From an uncultured SAR86 cluster bacterium (GTDB lineage Bacteria; Pseudomonadota; Gammaproteobacteria; Magnimaribacterales; TMED112): a DNA stretch of 64,000 bases. The translations under genes were made by a program, and so were the position numbers. Location of the stretch: contig CACATF010000002.1 of NCBI GenBank assembly GCA_902535365.1, forward strand, positions 15,114 to 79,113, written 5' to 3'. This document shows, piece by piece, positions 4,133 to 31,416 of this stretch (positions within the stretch are counted from its first letter, which is position 1; each line of letters starts with the position of its first letter). Under the pieces are notes generated by a model, which was not told where the DNA came from, ran no database searches, and saw only the letters and a program-made list of their open reading frames with translations.

Positions 4133-5355
4133 TGGATATCTATTTAGGAATTTTAGCTTTCACATTTATTGTTGCTTTGTTAGTTGCTTTTGTTATGTTC
4201 GCACGTTCACAATTGGTTTCTACCGGTGACGTCACAATTGAGATTAACGGTGATCCAGAAAAAAGCATAACGGTTCCAACAGGCGGCAAACTGCTGAGCA
4301 CATTAGCCGCGAAAAATATCTATTTAGCTTCAGCTTGTGGAGGGGGTGGTACCTGCGCAGAATGCAAGTGCCAAGTATCCGATGGTGGAGGATCAATTCT
4401 TCCAACTGAGCAATCACATTTTAACTACAAACAACAAACGGATAATTGGAGACTTTCATGCCAAGTTCCCGTGAAGAGCGATATGAAAATTCAAATCCCT
4501 GATGAAGTTTTTGGTGTGAAAGAGTGGGAATGTGAAGTAGTTTCAAACGACAATGTTGCAACCTTCATTAAAGAACTAGTACTTAAATTACCAGAAGGGG
4601 AAAACGTGAAATTTAGAGCTGGAGGATATGTGCAACTTGAAGCGCCAGCCTACCAAGCGATCAACTATAAAGATTTTGATGTAGCCGAGGAATACCATGA
4701 GGATTGGGATAGGTTTAAAATTTGGGACAACGTTGCGACCAACCCAGATCCAATCATTAGAGCTTACTCAATGGCTAACTTCCCATTAGAAGAAGGGGTT
4801 TTAAAATTCAACATCAGAGTGGCTTCACCACCACCAGGAACAGACTTTCCTCCAGGGATTATGTCCTCCTATGTGTTTAGTCTTAAGCCTGGTGATAAGG
4901 TCAAAGTTTTTGGTCCGTTCGGTGAATTCTTTGCTCGAGAGACAGACAATGAGATGGTATTTATTGGTGGAGGTGCCGGCATGGCGCCAATGAGATCGCA
5001 TATCTTTGATCAGCTAATTAGGCTGAATTCCAATAGAAAAATTTCCTACTGGTATGGTGCCAGAAGTATGAAGGAAATTTTTTACAAAGAAGAGTTTGAG
5101 AAACTAGCAGCAGAACATGAAAACTTCTCATTCAATATAGCTTTGTCTGATGCTCTACCAGAAGATAACTGGGATGGTCTCACAGGCTTCATACACCAAG
5201 TTACTCAAGATGAATACTTGGCAAAACATGAAGCTCCAGAGGACTGTGAATATTATCTTTGTGGACCACCAATTATGAATTCGAGCTGTATAAAAATGCT
5301 GACAGATCTTGGGGTTGAGCCTGAGAACATAATGCTAGATGACTTCGGTGGTTAG
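4132..5355 (+). CDS. nqrF: Na+-NQR subunit F (2Fe-2S ferredoxin / FAD / NADH domains)
   Basis: N-terminal TM helix. 2Fe-2S cysteines [12 protein letters not shown]...C. FAD motif RAYSMAN. NADH motif [11 protein letters not shown]. Confidence 0.95.
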
Positions 5356-6133
5356 AGCTTCTTTCCTAATATCCATAATATTTCTTAGTGCTTGCTCATC
5401 TGATGAGATCAGCAATTATTCAGGAGAGATTTATGGGACTTCTTACATCATCAAAACTACTGGAAAGCCGTCGAATGATCTAAAAGAAAAAATAGATGCT
5501 GAGCTCAACAGAATAGATTATGTTTTTTCGACTTACAAAGAGACCTCACTTATTTCAAAAATTAATCGAAACGAGGACGTCAAAAGGACAGAAGAGTTTA
5601 CATATGTTTTAAATTTGGCAAATCAAATCGCTCAGGATAGTGGGGGTGCATTTGATCCTTATGATGAAAACGGATTGGACTTCTCTGGTATCGCAAAAGG
5701 TTATGCCATTGATCGCATAGGGCATTTATTAGAAAACAACGCAATTAAAAATTACTTCATAGAAATTGGTGGTGAAGTAAGAACTTTAGGCACAAAATAC
5801 GGCGACAATTGGGTTTTTGCCGTAGAAAGACCCTCTACGGGTGAAAAAACCCCTTATATCGCATTTAAAACCCCCAAAAAAGGGATTTCTGTTGCTACAT
5901 CAGGTGAATATCGAGAGCCAAATCATATTTGGGGTGATGGGCCTCGCAATATCTTGTCAACTACGGTTGCTGCAAAGGATGCAGCTACAGCCGATGCTTG
6001 GGCAACTGCTCTTTATGTTTTAGGCAAAGAACAAGGTCTTAAACTAGCCAATGAGAATGATCTTGCGGTAATTTTTATTGACGAAGATGGTGAATCGATC
6101 CAATCATCAAGTTGGAGTATGATACAACTATGA
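5339..6133 (+). CDS. apbE: FAD:protein FMN transferase (ApbE family), lipoprotein, unusually short
   Basis: Lipobox LSAC. ApbE-like blocks [45 protein letters not shown] and [10 protein letters not shown]. Canonical position after nqrF. Confidence 0.85.
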
Positions 6134-23286: not shown

Positions 23287-23315
23287 GGGCGGTTGATTAA
23301 AAACTGCCCTTTTAT
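23287..23315. terminator. Weak hairpin between the convergent M14 gene and gltD
   Basis: GGGCGG-N11-CTGCCC (one mismatch) followed by TTTTAT. Confidence 0.3.
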
Positions 23316-24703
23316 CCTATAAATTTAATAATTTCTTTAGCAGCATCTCTGCCATGAGCTATCGCATGCACGGCTAAACTTGAACCTATTATCATGTCCC
23401 CACCTGCAAAATATTTAGGATTGGATGTCTGGTAGTTAAATTTGTTATTGTTCAATTCCACGAGTCCGGTGTCTGAGATCTTAACATTCTTATCTAGAAC
23501 AAAATCTGGTACATCTGCTTGATATCCAAAAGCAATAACTAACTTATCTACCTCTATAGCTTTCTCAGAGCCTTCAATTAGCTCTGGACGCTGTCTTCCA
23601 CTGGCGTCTGGCTTACCAAGCTTAGTTTCACATACTTTCAAGCTGGTAATTGATCCATTGCCCTCGACTTTCAAAGGTTGGGTATTGAATAGAAAATCAA
23701 CGCCCTCCTCCATAGCATGTTTAATTTCACGAATGGAGCCTGGCATGTTTTCTTGATCTCTACGATATATACAAGTTACGCTTTTTGCTTGTTGACGCAC
23801 AGCAGTCCTCACACAATCCATAGCGGTATCTCCACCTCCCAGAACAGCGACTCTATGATCTTTAAAATCTATTTTTTCTGCATCATCCGGATCCATCAAA
23901 TATTCTGTATTTTTAATGAGGTATGGTAATGCTTCCACAACACCTGTTTTATTGGTACCTTCAATCTTACCTTTGATTGATTCATACGTTCCCAAACCTA
24001 AAAATATGGCATCACTTTTCTTATCAATTTCTGCTACCTTCTTTGTATCAACTTCTGTATTTAAGACAAATTTCACGCCTAATTCTTCTAGCATTTCTCT
24101 CCGTTTCAGGACGATGCTCTTTTCAAGCTTAAATTCTGGTATGCCATAAGTTAATAAGCCGCCTATTTCAGGGTTTTTGTCGTATACAGTACACTTTACC
24201 CCTCTTCTGATTAAATTTTCTGCACAAGCAAGTCCAGCGGGACCTGCACCAATTATGGACACATGTTTCTTGCCAAATTTTTCAACATATCGCTTTGGTT
24301 TCCACCCCATATTAATAGCTGTGTCGGTGATATGTTTTTCTATTTGTCCAATAGTAACTGCTTCGAAACCTGTATTCAGAGTGCATGCACCTTCACACAG
24401 CTTATCTTGTGGGCAAATCCTTCCGCATATCTCTGGAAATGAATTAGTTTGATGACATAAATCAGCAGCTTCTTCATATTTACCTTCATTTGCAAGCTTT
24501 AACCAATCTGGGATGAAATTATGCAAAGGACATTTCCATTCGCAATAGGGATTTCCACAATCTAAACATCTACTTGATTGAGCTGCTATATCATCGTGTG
24601 TCTGAGGTTCGTATATTTCCCCAAAATTGGCTTTTCTTACCTCTAAGGGCTTTGTGTCAGGGTCAATCCTTTTAATGTCTATAAACTCAAAATTTGTTGA
24701 CAC
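23312..24703 (-). CDS. gltD: Glutamate synthase (NADPH) small subunit
   Basis: N-terminal Fe-S cysteine clusters (CLDCGNPYCEWKCP, CGRICPQDKLCEGAC). Two dinucleotide folds: IIGAGPAGLACA and VLGGGDTAMDC. Confidence 0.94.
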   Translation of the reverse strand: MSTNFEFIDIKRIDPDTKPLEVRKANFGEIYEPQTHDDIAAQSSRCLDCGNPYCEWKCPLHNFIPDWLKLANEGKYEEAADLCHQTNSFPEICGRICPQDKLCEGACTLNTGFEAVTIGQIEKHITDTAINMGWKPKRYVEKFGKKHVSIIGAGPAGLACAENLIRRGVKCTVYDKNPEIGGLLTYGIPEFKLEKSIVLKRREMLEELGVKFVLNTEVDTKKVAEIDKKSDAIFLGLGTYESIKGKIEGTNKTGVVEALPYLIKNTEYLMDPDDAEKIDFKDHRVAVLGGGDTAMDCVRTAVRQQAKSVTCIYRRDQENMPGSIREIKHAMEEGVDFLFNTQPLKVEGNGSITSLKVCETKLGKPDASGRQRPELIEGSEKAIEVDKLVIAFGYQADVPDFVLDKNVKISDTGLVELNNNKFNYQTSNPKYFAGGDMIIGSSLAVHAIAHGRDAAKEIIKFIG

Positions 24704-27700
24704 TATGCTGCCTCCTCTCTTGTGTTTTTAATAATTCTTGCCAGATTCTCAGCATATGGCGTAATAATCCAGAATAGGTTTTGGTATTTTTCAAAATCTT
24801 CTAGGATTTTTTTTGCTACTTCGCTATTGGTTTCTTTAATAAAGAAGGCAATTCTATCTTTTAGGTATGATCTATGAGCTTCCATATCTTGGCTTGTGAT
24901 ACGGTTAAAAGTAATGAGGTCTTTGTTACACCTATCAACGAAACTTCTGTCCTCATCTAACACATAAGCAAAGCCTCCAGTCATGCCCGCACCAAAATTG
25001 TTACCAACTGGCCCAAGAACAATCACTTCGCCGCCTGTCATGTATTCACAACAATGGTCACCGCTGCCCTCAATAATTGCTTTTGCACCAGAATTCCTTA
25101 CAGCGAACCTTTCACCTACCGTACCATTTCCATAGAACTCCCCACCTGTGGCACCGAACAAACAAGTATTTCCAGCTATGATTGACCTCTCTTCTTTAAG
25201 GGTTTTTGGTTTAAGAATAGTAATTTTTCCGCCATTCATGCCCTTGCCAACATAATCGTTAGCAAGCCCATTCAGCTTTAAATCTACTCCTTTTGAATTC
25301 CAACAGCCGAAACTTTGTCCGGCGTCACCTTTGAAATTAAGAATAAGTTTTTCAGGCAAACCCTCACTTCCATATTTTTTTGCAATATTTCCTGCGACTT
25401 CAGCCCCTATTGATCTTGCAGAATTAGTAATTTTAAAACTAAATGATCCTCCCTTCCCTTTGCTAATGCATTGTTTAATGGATCCAGATATTTTTTTTGT
25501 TAGGCTGTCATCCGTTAAAACCTGGTTAATATTATTTTTATGGATAGTATTTGATTGGGTTTTATTTGGTCTAAATCTTTCTTGCAAAACGCTTAAATCT
25601 AAAGCATTTGCTTCTGTTAAATAATCACTTTTTAAGCTTAGTAATGAGCTTTTTCCAATTATTTCTTCTAGAGATTTATAACCCAAACTTGCTAATATTT
25701 CTCTTGTTTCACGTGCTATAAACCTGAAGAAGTTTTGGACTTTTTCAACCTCACCAGCAAAGTGCTCATCTATCAATCGTAATTGCTGTGTAGCAACCCC
25801 AGTAGCACAATTATTTAAATGGCATATCCTCAAATATTTGCACCCCATAGCAATCATTGGAGCAGTACCAAAACCAAATGAATCCGCCCCAAAAATAGCA
25901 GCTTTTGCAACATCCAATCCAGTTTTCAATCCTCCATCTGTTTGAAGCTTTACGTTTGTCCTTAAATTGCTTTGTAGCAAAATATTTTGTGTCTCAAACA
26001 TCCCAGTCTCCCATGGGGATCCTGCATGCCTGATTGATGATAATGGGCTAGCACCAGTTCCTCCGTCATGTCCTGAAATGGTTATAAAATCAGCATTTGC
26101 TTTGACAACTCCGGCTGCAACAATCCCTACTCCTGGTTCAGAAACTAACTTTACTGATACTTGAGCTGACTGGTTAATTTGTTTTAGATCATAAATGAGC
26201 TGAGAGAGGTCTTCAATTGAGTAGATATCATGATGTGGTGGAGGTGAAATCAAAGTTATGCCTGGTTTTGAAAAACGCAGTTTGGCAATATATGGATCCA
26301 CTTTACTTCCTGGGAGCTGGCCACCCTCTCCTGGTTTTGCACCCTGAGCAATTTTAATTTGAAGAACCTCTGCATTGGTTAAATAATGTGGGGTCACTCC
26401 GAATCTTCCTGAGGCAATTTGCTTTATCTTTGATTCTATATTTGCTCCATACCTCCTTTCATCTTCTCCTCCTTCACCTGAGTTTGAACGACATCCCAAT
26501 CCATTCATTGCCGCTGCAAGAGTTTCATGAGCTTTGGGAGACATGGATCCAAGACTCATACCTGCTGAATCAAACCTTTTTAAAATATCTTCTTCGGACT
26601 CAACCTCTGAAATATCAATAGGATTTCGAGATGATTTAAGTTCAAAATAATCTCTTAGAGCAAGCGGTTTTCTATGATTAATTTTATTTGCATATTCTTG
26701 ATAACCTTCGTAAGAAGATCTTTTTAGTGACTCTTGAAGAGTTATGACAGTGCCAGGATTAAATGCATGATCTTCCCCATTATTTTTGAATTTATGCAGT
26801 CCTTCAGCAACGTCATTTGAATCATAATCACCTTCGATAACTGACATAATATCATGATGAATATCTTCAAAACCCTTTCCCTTTATGAGTGTCGTATTTT
26901 TAGGAAAACAAAAGCTATTCACTTCATTAGAAAAACCAATCACTTCAAACAATGCTGCGCCCCTGTAGCTTGATACATTTGAAATACCCATTTTTGACAT
27001 GATCTTTAACAATCCTTTGTTTAAGCATTTTCTGTAACTCAAACAAAGCTCGTTTGAGGTCATATCAGTTTTTAAATCCTTGGCTATCTTTAGCACTGTT
27101 TGTAAACCAAGCCAAGGATGGACACATGTAGCTCCAAAACCAATTAAACAGGCAATTTGATGATTGTCTCGAGCTGAAGCAGTATTAACAATTATGTTGC
27201 TTAAGGTTCTTAAATTAGCTTTGATTAGCTCATTATGTAGGGCTGAAGTAATTAACAGCGCTGGAATTACTGGTTTCGAAGGCGATGATTGCTTTTCATC
27301 AAGAACAATCAAACAGTTTCCTCGTTTAACATCACTTATTATGATTTCCACAAGTTCTTTTAGTGCCGCTTCCAATCCCTGTTCTGTGCAATATTCCAAT
27401 GAGTAACGCTCAACAGGAAATTTCTTATTTTTAAGCAATAGATTAAATTTTTTATGGGACAAGATTGGCGAATTCACTACCACTCTGAGGGCATGCATCT
27501 CTGTTTCCTCAAATATGTTAAGTTCAGGTCCTATACATGTCTCAAGAGACATCACTGATTTTTCCCTCAAGGAATCTATTGGCGGATTGGTTACCTGTGC
27601 AAAGCGCTGTCTACAATTATCATAGAGTGATCTTATCTTGGTACTTACGGGGGAAATAGGCACATCGTCACCCATGGATCCTGTTGGTTCATTGCCTTCA

Positions 27701-29124
27701 AGAGCATAAGACTTAAGAACTTGCTTTTCTTCGCTAGTGAGACAGAAATTTTTTGCTGATTCATCGAAATAGCTTTTGGATACTTCTCGCATTTGAGGTC
27801 CTGCGTATTCATGTAGATTGCTTTCAAGATGCTTAGCTCGGTTTTTCAACCATTTTCTGTAAGGGTTTTTGGATGCAAGATCTCTATCAACATCAATATC
27901 TTTAAGCTCTATGCATTCTTTTCTATCAAAGAGAAATAGTCCACCCGGTCCCAACCGATCAGTTTGAACACGTTTTAATGAAGGCAAATGATTAGAGCCC
28001 ACTTCAGAAGCAATGCAAATAGTGTCATCATCGAAGTATTCAATTCTTGCAGGCCTCAAACCATTTCTATCTAAGAAACAAGAAATGTAATCACTGGATT
28101 GATAACAAATCAGTGCAGGCCCATCCCAGGCTTCCATATGCATAGAATTATATTCATGGAATGCCTTTTCATCCGGGTCCATTAAATCTGTGTTTTGCCA
28201 TGAAGGTGGTATCAGCATTCGAGCCGCTCTTGCTATGGAAATTCCACCTTGAGTAAATAATTCAAGAACATTGTCCAATGACGAAGAATCGGAACCCTCT
28301 TGGTTAACTAGGGGTTGATAGTCATCAAGATTGCCAAGCTTTTGAGACACAAAACTGGCAGTTCTAGCTTTTGCCCAATTCCTATTGCCTTCTATCGTAT
28401 TTATTTCGCCATTATGCGCCAAGACCCTATAAGGTTGAGAAAGATGCCATTTTGGAGAAGTGTTTGTGGAAAAACGAATATGAAAAGTTGCAGATGCCGA
28501 TCTAAATACTGGGCTTCTAAGATCAGTAAAAAAATCTGCGAAATATTCAGGAAGGACCAAACCTTTATAAACAATAGTTTTTGATGATAGAGATAAGCAA
28601 TAAAACTCTTTCTCGGGGTCAAAATTATTATCAATTAAACGTTTAGTTTTAAAGAGTTGTATTTCTGTTTTGTCATTATCTTGATCTTTGATTTTTGGCA
28701 CTAAAAAAACCTGTACTACTTTTGGGCAGGATTTCTTTGCTAAATCACCAAGAATATCCTTATCTACTGATAGCTCACGTAATGCTAGAATCTGAAATCC
28801 GTGTTTGGATAGAATTTTTTCTATTTCTGTTTGAAAAGAAACAAGGTCTTTGGCAAAAAACATGCCAACAGAAAAATTTGATGGAAGAATTATTTTTTGC
28901 TCATCAAGGATAATTTTTTGGAAAAATTTATGGTCTAAATCGAAGAGAATTCCACAACCATCTGGAGTTTCACCATCATAGCTTACAGCCCCTCTATGCC
29001 GCATATTATGAAGAGACATTAAAGATCTATGCACTATCTCATGGTCAAAAACATTATTTTTACTGAATATTACGCCTGTCCCGCAATTATCGTGATGTTT
29101 GAGACTCTTTAAGTAATCTGTCAT
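24703..29124 (-). CDS. gltB: Glutamate synthase large subunit
   Basis: 1473 aa. Ntn amidotransferase Cys after a short propeptide (HHDN-CGTGVIF). FMN/3Fe-4S region (CHLNNCATGVATQ). C-terminal Gly-rich beta-helix. Confidence 0.95.
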   Translation of the reverse strand: MTDYLKSLKHHDNCGTGVIFSKNNVFDHEIVHRSLMSLHNMRHRGAVSYDGETPDGCGILFDLDHKFFQKIILDEQKIILPSNFSVGMFFAKDLVSFQTEIEKILSKHGFQILALRELSVDKDILGDLAKKSCPKVVQVFLVPKIKDQDNDKTEIQLFKTKRLIDNNFDPEKEFYCLSLSSKTIVYKGLVLPEYFADFFTDLRSPVFRSASATFHIRFSTNTSPKWHLSQPYRVLAHNGEINTIEGNRNWAKARTASFVSQKLGNLDDYQPLVNQEGSDSSSLDNVLELFTQGGISIARAARMLIPPSWQNTDLMDPDEKAFHEYNSMHMEAWDGPALICYQSSDYISCFLDRNGLRPARIEYFDDDTICIASEVGSNHLPSLKRVQTDRLGPGGLFLFDRKECIELKDIDVDRDLASKNPYRKWLKNRAKHLESNLHEYAGPQMREVSKSYFDESAKNFCLTSEEKQVLKSYALEGNEPTGSMGDDVPISPVSTKIRSLYDNCRQRFAQVTNPPIDSLREKSVMSLETCIGPELNIFEETEMHALRVVVNSPILSHKKFNLLLKNKKFPVERYSLEYCTEQGLEAALKELVEIIISDVKRGNCLIVLDEKQSSPSKPVIPALLITSALHNELIKANLRTLSNIIVNTASARDNHQIACLIGFGATCVHPWLGLQTVLKIAKDLKTDMTSNELCLSYRKCLNKGLLKIMSKMGISNVSSYRGAALFEVIGFSNEVNSFCFPKNTTLIKGKGFEDIHHDIMSVIEGDYDSNDVAEGLHKFKNNGEDHAFNPGTVITLQESLKRSSYEGYQEYANKINHRKPLALRDYFELKSSRNPIDISEVESEEDILKRFDSAGMSLGSMSPKAHETLAAAMNGLGCRSNSGEGGEDERRYGANIESKIKQIASGRFGVTPHYLTNAEVLQIKIAQGAKPGEGGQLPGSKVDPYIAKLRFSKPGITLISPPPHHDIYSIEDLSQLIYDLKQINQSAQVSVKLVSEPGVGIVAAGVVKANADFITISGHDGGTGASPLSSIRHAGSPWETGMFETQNILLQSNLRTNVKLQTDGGLKTGLDVAKAAIFGADSFGFGTAPMIAMGCKYLRICHLNNCATGVATQQLRLIDEHFAGEVEKVQNFFRFIARETREILASLGYKSLEEIIGKSSLLSLKSDYLTEANALDLSVLQERFRPNKTQSNTIHKNNINQVLTDDSLTKKISGSIKQCISKGKGGSFSFKITNSARSIGAEVAGNIAKKYGSEGLPEKLILNFKGDAGQSFGCWNSKGVDLKLNGLANDYVGKGMNGGKITILKPKTLKEERSIIAGNTCLFGATGGEFYGNGTVGERFAVRNSGAKAIIEGSGDHCCEYMTGGEVIVLGPVGNNFGAGMTGGFAYVLDEDRSFVDRCNKDLITFNRITSQDMEAHRSYLKDRIAFFIKETNSEVAKKILEDFEKYQNLFWIITPYAENLARIIKNTREEAA

Positions 29125-29154: not shown

Positions 29155-29183
29155 TTGACAAACTGATTATATAATATTAATTT
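29155..29183 (+). promoter_or_regulatory. Candidate sigma-70 promoter for the riboswitch-porin-amt transcript (TTGACA-17-TAATTT)
   Basis: Perfect -35 TTGACA at 29155..29160. A TAnnnT hexamer lies 17 nt downstream. Confidence 0.35.
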
Positions 29184-29239
29184 TGATAATGTTATTTTAT
29201 AACTAGTATTTATGACGATGTAGCAATACATCTCCCATA

Positions 29240-29310
29240 CTCCATGGGTAAAAAGGAGCCCATATAACATGGGTTAAAAGTTAAACCATTCTCCATGGTA
29301 AAAAAGGAGC
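29240..29310 (+). repeat. Two copies of a 20-nt hairpin-forming element (CTCCATGGGTAAAAAGGAGC / CTCCATGGTAAAAAAGGAGC), 51 nt apart
   Basis: Copies at 29240..29259 and 29291..29310. Each can fold CTCC/GGAG around an A-rich loop. CCCAT/ATGGG segments between them allow alternative pairings. Confidence 0.7.
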
Positions 29311-29317
29311 GGCTAAT

Positions 29318-29370
29318 CGTTCATCCTAACTTACAAGGACGGAAGTAGGCTTCATGCTGAAGGAACGCGC
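29318..29370 (+). promoter_or_regulatory. Glutamine riboswitch aptamer (glnA RNA motif)
   Basis: Sequence: CGTTCATCC-TAACTTACAA-GGACGGAAGTAGG-CTTCATGCTGAAG-GAACGCGC. P1 is CGUUC (29318..22) with GAACG (29363..67). Inner hairpins are UCC/GGA and CUUC/GAAG. The conserved blocks GGACGGAAGUAGG and GAAGGAACGC match the glnA motif consensus as I remember it. It lies upstream of nitrogen genes. Confidence 0.8.
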
Positions 29371-29443
29371 TTTAATCCATAATGTGAAGGTTTGATCCCT
29401 TTGATTCATTAATGCTTTTTATATTTTTTATAAGGAGATGTTT

Positions 29444-30040
29444 ATGAAAAAAGGAATGATGACTATTGTCATGTTTCTAACTTTATATACTTTCGGAGAA
29501 GTATCTTCGAATTTTACGTTTTCATCCAACTATTTCTGGAGGGGTATGACCCAAACCATGGATAGTCCCGCTTACAGTGGTGGATTTGATTATAGCCATG
29601 AGTCTGGCTTTTATGCTGGAACTTGGGGTTCTAATGTTTCTTTTGGTGGCGCTGGTCTTGAATTAGATCTTTATGCTGGTTACGCAGGCGAAACTGAAAG
29701 TGGTATTGGTTACGATTTTGGATATATCAATTATGCATATCCAGAAGTTGATGATGCTGACTTCTCAGAGATGTATGGGTCTCTATCTTATGAGGGATTT
29801 GGTTTTACATATTACGTGGGTGATGAATTTGGTGACTACTATGAGTTTTCTTATGGTGTTGGACCTGTTTCTTTCTCATACGGTGATTATGAAGACACTG
29901 GCTCAAACTATCTAATTGGCTATGCTTTTGCCCTTGGTGGGTTCGACGCATCAGTAGCATACAGCTCTTTTATGGCTGAAAGTATGACAGAGATGGAAGA
30001 CGAAGATGGTCTGTTTTTCACAATTGGAGCGTCATTCTAA
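29444..30040 (+). CDS. Putative outer-membrane beta-barrel/porin (TorF / Gcw_chp-like family)
   Basis: AAGGAG sits 6 nt upstream of the ATG at 29444 (the track's 29438 ATG abuts the SD). Signal peptide. Alternating aromatic/Gly strands. C-terminal ...TIGASF. This family often neighbours amt genes in proteobacteria. Confidence 0.7.
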   Translation: MKKGMMTIVMFLTLYTFGEVSSNFTFSSNYFWRGMTQTMDSPAYSGGFDYSHESGFYAGTWGSNVSFGGAGLELDLYAGYAGETESGIGYDFGYINYAYPEVDDADFSEMYGSLSYEGFGFTYYVGDEFGDYYEFSYGVGPVSFSYGDYEDTGSNYLIGYAFALGGFDASVAYSSFMAESMTEMEDEDGLFFTIGASF

Positions 30041-30052
30041 ATAGGGGGCACT

Positions 30053-31300
30053 ATGGAAGTCGAATACGCGTTAAATACGTTATATATGCTAATTACTGCA
30101 GCACTAGTCATGTGGATGGCTGCAGGATTCACTATGCTAGAAGCAGGTCTTGTTAGAAGAAAAAATACTGCTGAAATTGTTACTAAAAATATCGGTTTAT
30201 ATTCAATAGCTTGTTTTATGTATCTTCTATGTGGCTACATGGCCATGTATCCAGGTGATGCCTTTGCAGGTGGATTTATGCCTGCTTTTGATTTTGGTTT
30301 TGGGGATACTGTTGCTGACACAGTCGAAGATGGCTATGGCTACTCAGAATCTGCCGATTTCTTTTTCCAAGTAGTTTTTGTTGCTACAGCATGTTCAATC
30401 GTTTCTGGAGCAGTTGCTGAAAGAATGAATCAATGGCCTTTCTTTGCATTAGTAGTTTTTATTGCTGCCTTCATATACCCAGTACAAGGTTACTGGAACT
30501 GGGGTGGTGGTTTCTTAAAAGCTGATGGTTATTCTGATTTCGCAGGTTCAGGGACAGTGCATTTAGCCGGAGCAGCATGTGCTTTAGCTGCAGCGCTATT
30601 TATAGGTCCTAGACTTGGGAAATATGGCAAAGAGACTGGTAAGCGTTTTGGAATGTTTCCTATAGCTCAAACCAAAAAGCTATATGGAGCAAATATTCCA
30701 ATAGCTGCTTTAGGTACTTTTGTACTATGGTTAGGCTGGTTTGGTTTCAATGGCGGATCTCAATTAGCTATTCAAGACGTTGAAAATGCTAATGCTGTTG
30801 CTCAGGTTTTCTTGAATACAAATGCTGCTGCTGCAGGTGGTGTAATTGCCTGTTTGGTTGTAGCAAGGGTATTTTTCAAAAAGACTAATATCATATACGC
30901 CCTAAATGGAGCTATATCTGGTCTGGTATCTATTACAGCTGACCCATTATCACCTAGTGGCTATGAAGCTACATTGATTGGTGCATGTGGAGGCTTGCTT
31001 TGCTATGGATCTCTAGTTGCTTTAGAGCAATTCTTTAAAGTTGATGATCCTGTTGGAGCAATCTCAGCTCACGGAACTGCTGGAATATTCGGTGTAATGG
31101 TAGTGCCATTCACCAATGCAGATGCTAATTTCGGATCCCAATTCTATGGTGTTGTATCCATAGTTCTGTGGGGTTTTGTTCTTACTTATGCATTCTTGTT
31201 CTTACTTAACCTCGTAGCGCCAGTTAAGGCGTCTGATGATATTCAGAAGAAAGGATTAGATGCAGAAGAAATTGGTATAGAAGCATACCCAGAATTCTAA
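30053..31300 (+). CDS. amt: Ammonium transporter (Amt family)
   Basis: Polytopic protein. Amt signature DFAGSGTVHLAGA and second conserved His block AISAHGTAGIFG. Confidence 0.94.
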   Translation: MEVEYALNTLYMLITAALVMWMAAGFTMLEAGLVRRKNTAEIVTKNIGLYSIACFMYLLCGYMAMYPGDAFAGGFMPAFDFGFGDTVADTVEDGYGYSESADFFFQVVFVATACSIVSGAVAERMNQWPFFALVVFIAAFIYPVQGYWNWGGGFLKADGYSDFAGSGTVHLAGAACALAAALFIGPRLGKYGKETGKRFGMFPIAQTKKLYGANIPIAALGTFVLWLGWFGFNGGSQLAIQDVENANAVAQVFLNTNAAAAGGVIACLVVARVFFKKTNIIYALNGAISGLVSITADPLSPSGYEATLIGACGGLLCYGSLVALEQFFKVDDPVGAISAHGTAGIFGVMVVPFTNADANFGSQFYGVVSIVLWGFVLTYAFLFLLNLVAPVKASDDIQKKGLDAEEIGIEAYPEF

Positions 31301-31302
31301 GA

Positions 31303-31416
31303 ATGGAAGACGAGAGAAAAGCTAAATCCCTACTTATTGCCCTTTGTTTTGTTTTTGGTTTTTCTCTCGGCTTTTATATAACAATTTTAACTGGAACTAA
31401 TACGCTTCTGAGTTAA
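31303..31416 (+). CDS. Possible 37-aa single-TM peptide downstream of amt (speculative)
   Basis: Manual translation: MEDERKAKSLLIALCFVFGFSLGFYITILTGTNTLLS. The ATG lies 2 nt after the amt stop. No SD seen. Confidence 0.25.
   Translation: MEDERKAKSLLIALCFVFGFSLGFYITILTGTNTLLS

Follow-up and report, generated by a model that had tools for sequence, protein, structure and literature searches.

What is a glutamine-sensing RNA, if it is one, doing ahead of a porin gene and an ammonium transporter gene in gammaproteobacterial surroundings? This question is raised by a 53-nt segment, CGTTCATCCTAACTTACAAGGACGGAAGTAGGCTTCATGCTGAAGGAACGCGC, at 29318-29370 of the window, by which we mean the whole 64-kb stretch of DNA that was analyzed. 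Glutamine riboswitches of this type (glnA RNA) were reportedly found by Ames and Breaker in 2011 in cyanobacteria and marine metagenomes. An earlier note had recognized the near-invariant blocks of glnA RNA in the segment, and the Rfam covariance model bears this out. RF01739 (glutamine riboswitch aptamer, glnA leader) matches 29316-29371 on the plus strand over its full length (model positions 1-53) with a score of 57.3 bits (E = 5.4e-10), above the gathering score of 35 bits, and it is the sole Rfam match at the gathering threshold across the whole window (cmscan, Rfam 15). The elements of the aptamer are as follows.

29316-29371, plus strand: type 1 glutamine riboswitch aptamer (glnA RNA), assigned from the RF01739 score, covariation in P2 and P3, and orthologous matches
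29318-22/29363-67, plus strand: aptamer stem P1, CGUUC/GAACG, from the RF01739 model
29324-27/29336-39, plus strand: aptamer stem P2, UCCU/AGGA, from the RF01739 model and covariation
29348-50/29356-58, plus strand: aptamer stem P3, GGC/GCU, from the RF01739 model and covariation

A stringent core pattern, CGTTCA..GGACGGAAGTA..GAAGGAACG, occurs once in the window against an expectation of 0 from 100 shuffles. The junction and E-loop blocks AUCGUUCA, ACGGAAGUA and GAAGGAACGC, together with the C after P1, are identical to the model consensus and invariant among orthologues; this C (C29368) matches the position of the ‘linchpin’ C of the class. A permissive Rfam scan also gave the Glutamine-II riboswitch (RF01704), at 16.8 bits against a gathering score of 33 (E = 0.96) and so below membership; this weak overlap, at 29315-29362, arises because the glutamine-binding core sequence is common to both classes, although RF01704, also called the Downstream-peptide motif, has a pseudoknot architecture. 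As far as sequence can display it, 29316-29371 is a member of RF01739 on every count. The aptamer is in sense orientation, 73 nt upstream of the porin start, with amt behind the porin gene and a promoter-like site on its 5' side, and we are highly confident that it is a genuine cis-acting glutamine aptamer. The surrounding features are listed below.

29155-29183, plus strand: candidate sigma-70 promoter of porin-amt, TTGACA (29155-60), 17-nt spacer, TAATTT (29178-83), from sequence reading and conservation
29432-29446, plus strand: Shine-Dalgarno (SD) sequence AAGGAG (29432-37) and start codon ATG (29444-46) of the porin gene, read from the sequence
29444-30040, plus strand: gene for a putative outer-membrane porin of the TorF/Gcw_chp family, 198 aa (PF09694, 81.9 bits; TIGR02001, 111.9 bits)
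30053-31300, plus strand: ammonium transporter gene amt, marine subtype, 415 aa (PF00909, 280 bits; TIGR03644, 542.7 bits against a cutoff of 514)
31296-31385, plus strand: long hairpin followed by UUUUAUAU, 3' of amt, probable operon terminator (fold -36.2 kcal/mol, z -3.3)
23312-29124, minus strand: glutamate synthase genes gltB (24703-29124) and gltD (23312-24703), divergent (open reading frames; Pfam labels on identical contigs)

The controlled unit had been described as a putative outer-membrane channel plus amt, and this reading stands: a TorF/Gcw_chp porin gene and a TIGR03644-type amt share a leader that carries the aptamer on the sense strand. The porin start at 29444 was also chosen by gene callers on ten metagenome contigs (198-aa product), and AAGGAG lies 61 nt 3' of the aptamer end, close to the earlier figure of about 65 nt. 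The promoter layout TTGAC(A/T)-17-TA(A/C)TTT is kept in orthologous leaders; a simple promoter scan missed it because the second hexamer is weak. Transcription of porin-amt would start near 29190, and its 5' UTR would then measure about 254 nt. At the other end, the near-perfect hairpin at 31296-31385 is probably the operon terminator; the third plus-strand gene, encoding an amidase, is found 3' of amt beyond this strong hairpin and its U-run. The same hairpin drew spurious weak microRNA-family matches in the permissive Rfam scan. The divergent gap between gltBD and the porin gene, which contains the aptamer, is 319 nt long; gltBD is on the opposite strand and is therefore not under the aptamer, though the intergenic region is common to both units. 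We also observed a sigma-70-like sequence for gltBD on the minus strand at 29166-29195 (ATAACA-18-TATAAT, 10/12), which overlaps the putative porin-amt promoter, so that the two units may share a compact back-to-back control region.

The G+C content of the window is 33-40%. An identical amt protein occurs on many marine metagenome contigs (up to ~1.0 Mb), in which the gene order is unchanged and the leader is identical too. Among one-genome-per-species GTDB contigs, the closest amt loci belong to a gammaproteobacterial MAG (78% identical) and to SAR86 cluster bacterium AG-349-I13 (73%), and the remaining loci, 50-58% identical, are spread over many gammaproteobacteria. The gammaproteobacterial setting proposed earlier thus agrees with the nearest named genomes, which are SAR86 cluster bacteria (amt 73-78% identical), and we treat the host as a SAR86-clade gammaproteobacterium on the basis of these genomes rather than of a marker-gene phylogeny.

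RF01739 is present upstream of porin-amt in both of the close genomes (66.4 and 58.9 bits) and, at 70.1 bits, in L163, a SAR86 single-cell genome that is more distant; the L163 contig opens within a second tandem aptamer, of which it retains the 3' end. Among contigs found by porin homology, it scored 48-68 bits in every one that had enough upstream sequence and a porin at least 64% identical, and porin-glnB-amt loci (porin 44-53% identical) gave no RF01739 match. Two contigs (L216/L217) carry it before porin-amt though the upstream neighbor is not gltB. For covariation we aligned 22 non-identical porin-class leaders, 17 of which had been fetched by a pattern requiring GTTTRAY, so that the 3' arm of the long-range helix described below is biased. 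In the proposed leader structure 97.0% of the cells are standard pairs, compared with at most 46% when the partners are slid. Within the aptamer, all three pairs of P3 and the fourth pair of P2 are altered on both sides, and P1 is invariant. Given the RF01739 matches in orthologues and these double changes, the aptamer is real, conserved and covarying; a sub-threshold score, absence from orthologous leaders and lack of covariation, which the earlier note had named as grounds for refuting it, were all not observed. Of the helices described in that note, P1 CGUUC/GAACG and the UCC/GGA hairpin were recovered as P1 and P2. The second hairpin, CUUC/GAAG, had to be given up: GAAG is part of the conserved junction in the RF01739 model and not a strand of P3, and the stem that covaries in relatives is GGC/GCU.

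The element is not confined to porin genes. A metagenome scan for the 3' half of the aptamer followed by the conserved GTTTRAY returned 85 contigs, with the following first downstream genes.

22/85 contigs: porin
1/85 contigs: amt directly
30/85 contigs: glutamine synthetase of 326-337 aa (GSII-like)
3/85 contigs: GSI, 468 aa
15/85 contigs: TonB-dependent receptor (Plug and barrel domains)
3/85 contigs: distant amt with a different leader
11/85 contigs: others, partly cyanobacterial

Many of these contigs have two aptamers, both above the Rfam threshold. Such tandem aptamers (L231, L259, L266 and L250; also L219/L220 and L163) precede GSII-like glnA, GSI glnA, TonB-dependent receptor and porin genes, and in L219/L220 they stand before GSII-porin-amt in a single array. 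Tandem-aptamer leaders of SAR86 type have the same 5' module as the window, together with a GUUAAAC/GUUURAC platform hairpin. The controlled genes have nitrogen uptake and assimilation functions throughout, and the tandem and single aptamer leaders look like a glutamine-riboswitch regulon. Three contigs (L252, L260, L301) carry an RF01739-type aptamer before an amt of another family (28-30% identical to the window amt), in an unrelated leader without the 5' module, which suggests that a further marine lineage uses an RF01739-type switch for amt.

We also counted PII genes (glnB/glnK) at amt loci. An aptamer without an adjacent PII gene was found at 43 loci, PII without an aptamer at 78, and both at one (L250, with tandem aptamers and porin-PII-amt, the lone exception); no PII gene is next to amt in the window or at the 42 other aptamer-bearing loci. 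Either amt similarity or the aptamer pattern had served to retrieve these loci, and the samples are not independent; even so, the alternation is sharp, and aptamer leaders and adjacent PII genes hardly ever occur together. Relatives in which the porin-amt core does include glnB/glnK are L223-L227 and L133. In the last of these, SAR86 SAG AG-914-F13, a variant RF01739 match and a short ORF lie downstream of glnB-amt (5312-5451 and 5510-5671). The variant scores 39.4 bits and has a ~90-nt insert in P3; the 53-aa ORF after it has YRG repeats and scores 24.0 bits for DUF4278 (cutoff 25.3), the IF17-like family that is found behind a glutamine riboswitch in cyanobacteria, and its SD region, GGAGGAACG, mimics the 3' strand of the aptamer.

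The aptamer is one part of a longer conserved leader, whose other elements are given here.

29205-29209, plus strand: outer helix 5' arm AGUAU (RNAalifold; pair counts)
29234-29312, plus strand: near-invariant 5' module (conservation against fourfold sites; motif count; Rfam scan)
29234-38/29244-48, plus strand: module hairpin CCCAU/AUGGG (sequence reading)
29240-43/29255-58, plus strand: first CUCC (hairpin loop) and GGAG (pairing possible)
29259-73, plus strand: hairpin HP2 (pairing kept across gene classes)
29280-29287, plus strand: long-range helix 5' arm GUUAAACC (RNAalifold; minimum-energy folds; pair counts)
29286-89/29295-98, plus strand: alternative hairpin CCAU/AUGG, overlapping the second CUCC/GGAG unit
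29291-94/29306-09, plus strand: second CUCC/GGAG unit, overlapping the alternative hairpin
29389-29402, plus strand: platform element, GGUUUGAU (29389-96, long-range helix 3' arm) then CCCUUU (29397-402) (conservation; pairing)
29412-29416, plus strand: outer helix 3' arm AUGCU (RNAalifold; pair counts)

The 77 nt of the 5' module (29234 to about 29310) are 73-75/77 identical between the window and its relatives (95-97%), whereas fourfold-degenerate (synonymous) sites in these lineages are 39-60% identical and the aptamer itself 40-43/55. Purifying selection acts strongly on the leader as a whole. The CUCC...A-rich...GGAG unit, which resembles an SD/anti-SD pair, occurs twice in the window (0 expected), and leaders of the other gene classes have a one-unit version of the module at their head. 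In those classes the HP2 stem takes at least six complementary forms (CCC/GGG, CCUU/AAGG, CCUUU/AAAGG, UCCU/AGGA, CUCAA/UUGAG and CCCAU/AUGGG) and a G-U variant, CUCAA/UUGGG. Given that its sequence varies and its pairing is kept, HP2 is better read as an RNA structure than as an operator in the DNA. The CUCC:GGAG pairing shows a CCCC:GGGG variant, two G-U forms and two single-sequence mismatches, and the unit is absent from three leaders that keep their aptamers (L228, L236, L291). Two other explanations of leader sequences were discarded: leader peptides, as the short ORFs of the 5' module differ in frame and length between L131 and the window, and a sigma-54/NtrC-type DNA site at TTTGCACCAT of related leaders, where the -24 GG is absent and which the window leader does not have. 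The stretch 29300-29317 (AAAGGAGCGGCUAAUC) resembles the 3' end of the aptamer plus its flank at 29359-29378 (GAAGGAACGCGCUUUAAUC; also GAAGGAACGCGCU..AAUC), and the second CUCC/GGAG unit may be a remnant, or degenerate copy, of a first tandem aptamer.

A long-range helix, 29280-87/29389-96, encloses the second unit and the aptamer. RNAalifold recovers it when leaders are selected solely by their protein, the minimum-energy folds of 7/7 leaders contain it, and the platform element that supplies its 3' arm is kept in 8/8 protein-selected leaders. Over the 22 leaders 98.9% of its cells are paired; all changes are one-sided and compatible with pairing (C->U opposite G, A->G opposite U, G->A opposite U), and no double compensatory change was seen in this set, 17 of whose members were retrieved by the GTTTRAY-constrained pattern. 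In tandem-aptamer leaders GUUURAC pairs locally with GUUAAAC directly 3' of the last aptamer; because GUUURAC is paired in either case, long-range or locally, we regard the helix as a shared platform module in two arrangements. The long-range helix is nested inside an outer 5'-3' helix (29205-09/29412-16), which ends 16 nt before the SD and has two of five pairs altered on both sides and 87% of its cells paired. Non-porin leaders (e.g. L231, L233, L230) have conserved UGCA palindromes at both ends instead (5' UUGCAU..UUUGCACC; 3' CUGCA-N7-10-UGCA near the SD), which could form local hairpins or a 5'-3' duplex; these are absent from the window leader, where the AGUAU/AUGCU helix takes their place.

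How could glutamine binding reach the ribosome-binding site? The leader holds competing AAGG tracts (in both units, the aptamer, the platform, the SD and codons 2-4) and pyrimidine partners for them (the two CUCC and CCCUUU), so that several relays can be drawn. Whether P1 was forced or blocked in thermodynamic folding, the predicted accessibility of the SD was the same in 7/7 leaders; a simple nested SD-sequestration switch is therefore unsupported, and the switch is not derivable from the secondary structure of these seven leaders alone. Several AAGG tracts, among them the start region AUGAAAAAAGG, find a complement in CCYUUU, which is weak evidence: the ‘anti-start’ pairing CCYUUU(UCAU):AUGAAAAAAGG is consistent in the porin class but consists of U/A runs and is not visibly kept in L241, and we retained it as a weak element only. 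In L241 (1943-2225) the leader, with both units, the aptamer and GGUUUGAC, is joined straight to amt and the porin gene is absent; its sequence after the helix is unlike that of the porin class, making it a natural experiment for platform models.

We consider it reasonably probable that the porin-amt leader is a functional type 1 glutamine riboswitch that represses translation at high glutamine and belongs to a lineage-wide regulon. Genes of the amt, porin, GSI, GSII and TonB-receptor types are normally induced by bacteria under nitrogen limitation. Given that all of the controlled genes are of these types, physiology makes an OFF direction likely, as the earlier note had predicted; an ON response would mean that glutamine synthetase and Amt are induced at high glutamine, a positive feedback on glutamine synthesis. 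Between translational control and transcription termination we lean slightly towards the former. Binding of glutamine would stabilize P1 and the nested helices, or re-partition the AAGG/CUCC/CCYUUU pairings; access of the ribosome to the SD and start region would fall, with secondary effects on mRNA stability or decay. Porin and Amt would then be made at low glutamine and shut down at high glutamine, and this direct negative feedback by the leader would do the job of GlnK/NtrBC in other proteobacteria. More tentatively, the leader can be imagined as a previously undescribed composite RNA device, in which a canonical aptamer is combined with an SD/anti-SD-mimic 5' module and a long-range clamp. 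Such a device would be the first glutamine riboswitch of OFF type and the core of a nitrogen regulon (GSI, GSII, amt, porin, TonB receptor) standing in for control of the GlnK/NtrBC type.

The main rival is an ON switch modeled on gifB, built on the same aptamer. Glutamine would recruit C29368 into the linchpin pair and melt a helix of the CGCUUU flank with GGAGCG (29306-11); the freed GGAG would pair with the CUCC loop (29291-94), which otherwise masks the real SD, and translation would rise with glutamine. Both characterized glutamine riboswitches are ON switches (PMC6212724), which counts against the OFF reading, and in the gifB model the C after P1 and the following bases pair with an SD-like, ribosome-binding sequence and are released on binding (PMC6212724). 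The genes associated with glnA RNA were also apparently down-regulated upon nitrogen depletion (Weinberg 2010, PMC2864571). In the present leaders CUCC is a perfect anti-SD, and the helix (GA)GCG:CGC(UU) beside P1 can be drawn in 22/22 porin-class leaders. However, the register of this helix shifts between leader subtypes, so that it cannot be scored as one column-wise helix and shows no consistent column pairing; the leaders of L228, L236 and L291 dispense with the CUCC/GGAG unit that the relay needs; and inducing amt, porin, GSI, GSII and TonB receptor genes at high glutamine would be physiologically senseless. We therefore think the ON switch unlikely.

We also considered transcription attenuation, in which GUUAAACC:GGUUUGAY with the following CC and U-run would form a branched intrinsic terminator, or would expose an entry site for Rho or RNase E. 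Formation of the helix would depend on the state of the aptamer, and control would act on elongation or decay and not on translation initiation. Several orthologues (L132, L221, L235) do have U8-U9 after the helix, and for the gifB riboswitch, whose mechanism is reportedly not settled, a part played by RNase E has been put forward (bioRxiv 10.1101/2021.07.27.453982). However, the tract in the window is only CCCUUUGAUUC, the length of the U-run is unconserved (3 to 9), and a terminator with a ~100-nt structured loop would be unusual. The earlier note had seen no clear intrinsic terminator between the aptamer and the SD; likewise, a terminator scan found no stand-alone one between 29372 and 29443, and the interval holds only a weak AAGG/CCUU hairpin and U3. 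This reading is improbable in our judgment.

A comparably improbable reading is that the 5' module (29234-29312) is the main regulatory site, as a platform for a protein or small RNA or as a second sensor, and that the aptamer only modulates it. The module is the better conserved of the two, versions of it head nearly all of the related leaders, it has repeated A-rich GGA motifs in or beside hairpins, and it matches no Rfam family at E<=10. On the other hand, no candidate binding factor was identified, the HP2 stem varies freely with its pairing kept, G-U forms included, as expected of RNA structure and not of a sequence-specific operator, and some leaders without the CUCC/GGAG unit keep their aptamers. 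Finally, a chance resemblance or a decaying relic without regulatory role is effectively refuted by the Rfam score, the absence of chance matches to the core pattern, the retention and covariation of the aptamer across lineages near synonymous saturation, and the recurrence of the aptamer before functionally related genes.

The position of the riboswitch among known systems can now be stated. The glnA RNA motif was first described from cyanobacteria and marine metagenomes, with ammonium transporters and glutamine synthetase among the associated genes (Weinberg 2010, PMC2864571), and the amt- and glnA-associated copies are known from non-cyanobacterial environmental DNA only, of unknown taxon and sign, none being in cyanobacterial genomes (Klahn 2018, PMC6212724). 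The earlier account of a class from cyanobacteria and unassigned marine metagenomes agrees with both papers. The novelty that it implied was too large: the amt association dates from 2010 (PMC2864571), and a 2025 study based on long-read metagenomes lists RF01739, in passing, inside deletions of SAR86 MAGs (PMC12379486). Our literature search found no paper analyzing RF01739 in SAR86, and the present analysis newly contributes an explicit host, an operon and a regulon, the alternation with PII and the architecture of the leader. The window copy shares with the glnA RNA as first described the three-stem junction, its conserved blocks and the gene associations, and tandem copies are common to both; the original metagenome copies had no host, whereas the present ones can be placed in SAR86-type genomes, with a description of the complete leader including GUUURAY. 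Two of the related contigs are GOS reads (AACY02...), and the original metagenome instances therefore probably included the SAR86-type lineage. In this way riboswitches upstream of amt and glnA that had been orphans since 2010 gain a host, and both host and regulatory sign become testable now that operon, promoter, leader and a series of orthologues are defined.

The Synechocystis gifB riboswitch (PMC6212724) has the same class of aptamer in a 5' UTR and gives post-transcriptional, net negative feedback on nitrogen assimilation. It is indeed an ON switch in a cyanobacterium, as the earlier note had it; its product, however, is IF17 and not IF7 (PMC6212724), a small DUF4278 inhibitor of glutamine synthetase. 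In the window the riboswitch would act directly on genes of assimilation and uptake, and the sign is therefore expected to be opposite. The window leader is also longer (~250 nt), with extra conserved modules that have not been reported for gifB. Compared with the tandem glycine riboswitch, the likeness lies in the two full glutamine aptamers in series of SAR86-type L231, L259, L266 and L250, and the difference in the single aptamer of the window. GlnK (PII)-AmtB with NtrBC performs the same task, coupling ammonium uptake to glutamine and nitrogen status, but uses protein sensors, whereas the window lineage has an RNA sensor and no adjacent PII gene. If it is OFF-acting, this would be the first such glutamine riboswitch, and a streamlined, very abundant marine heterotroph would let its nitrogen status govern both the uptake of ammonium and the synthesis of glutamine through RNA and not through PII/NtrBC. 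The leader could also mark SAR86 nitrogen status in metatranscriptomes.

We also observed the aptamer core pattern in IMG/VR viral contigs, where it occurs in at least 120 stretches (L011-L130). Glutamine riboswitches have been reported in cyanophages, pelagiphages and the OM43 phage Melnitz (PMC9004378), which fits this abundance.
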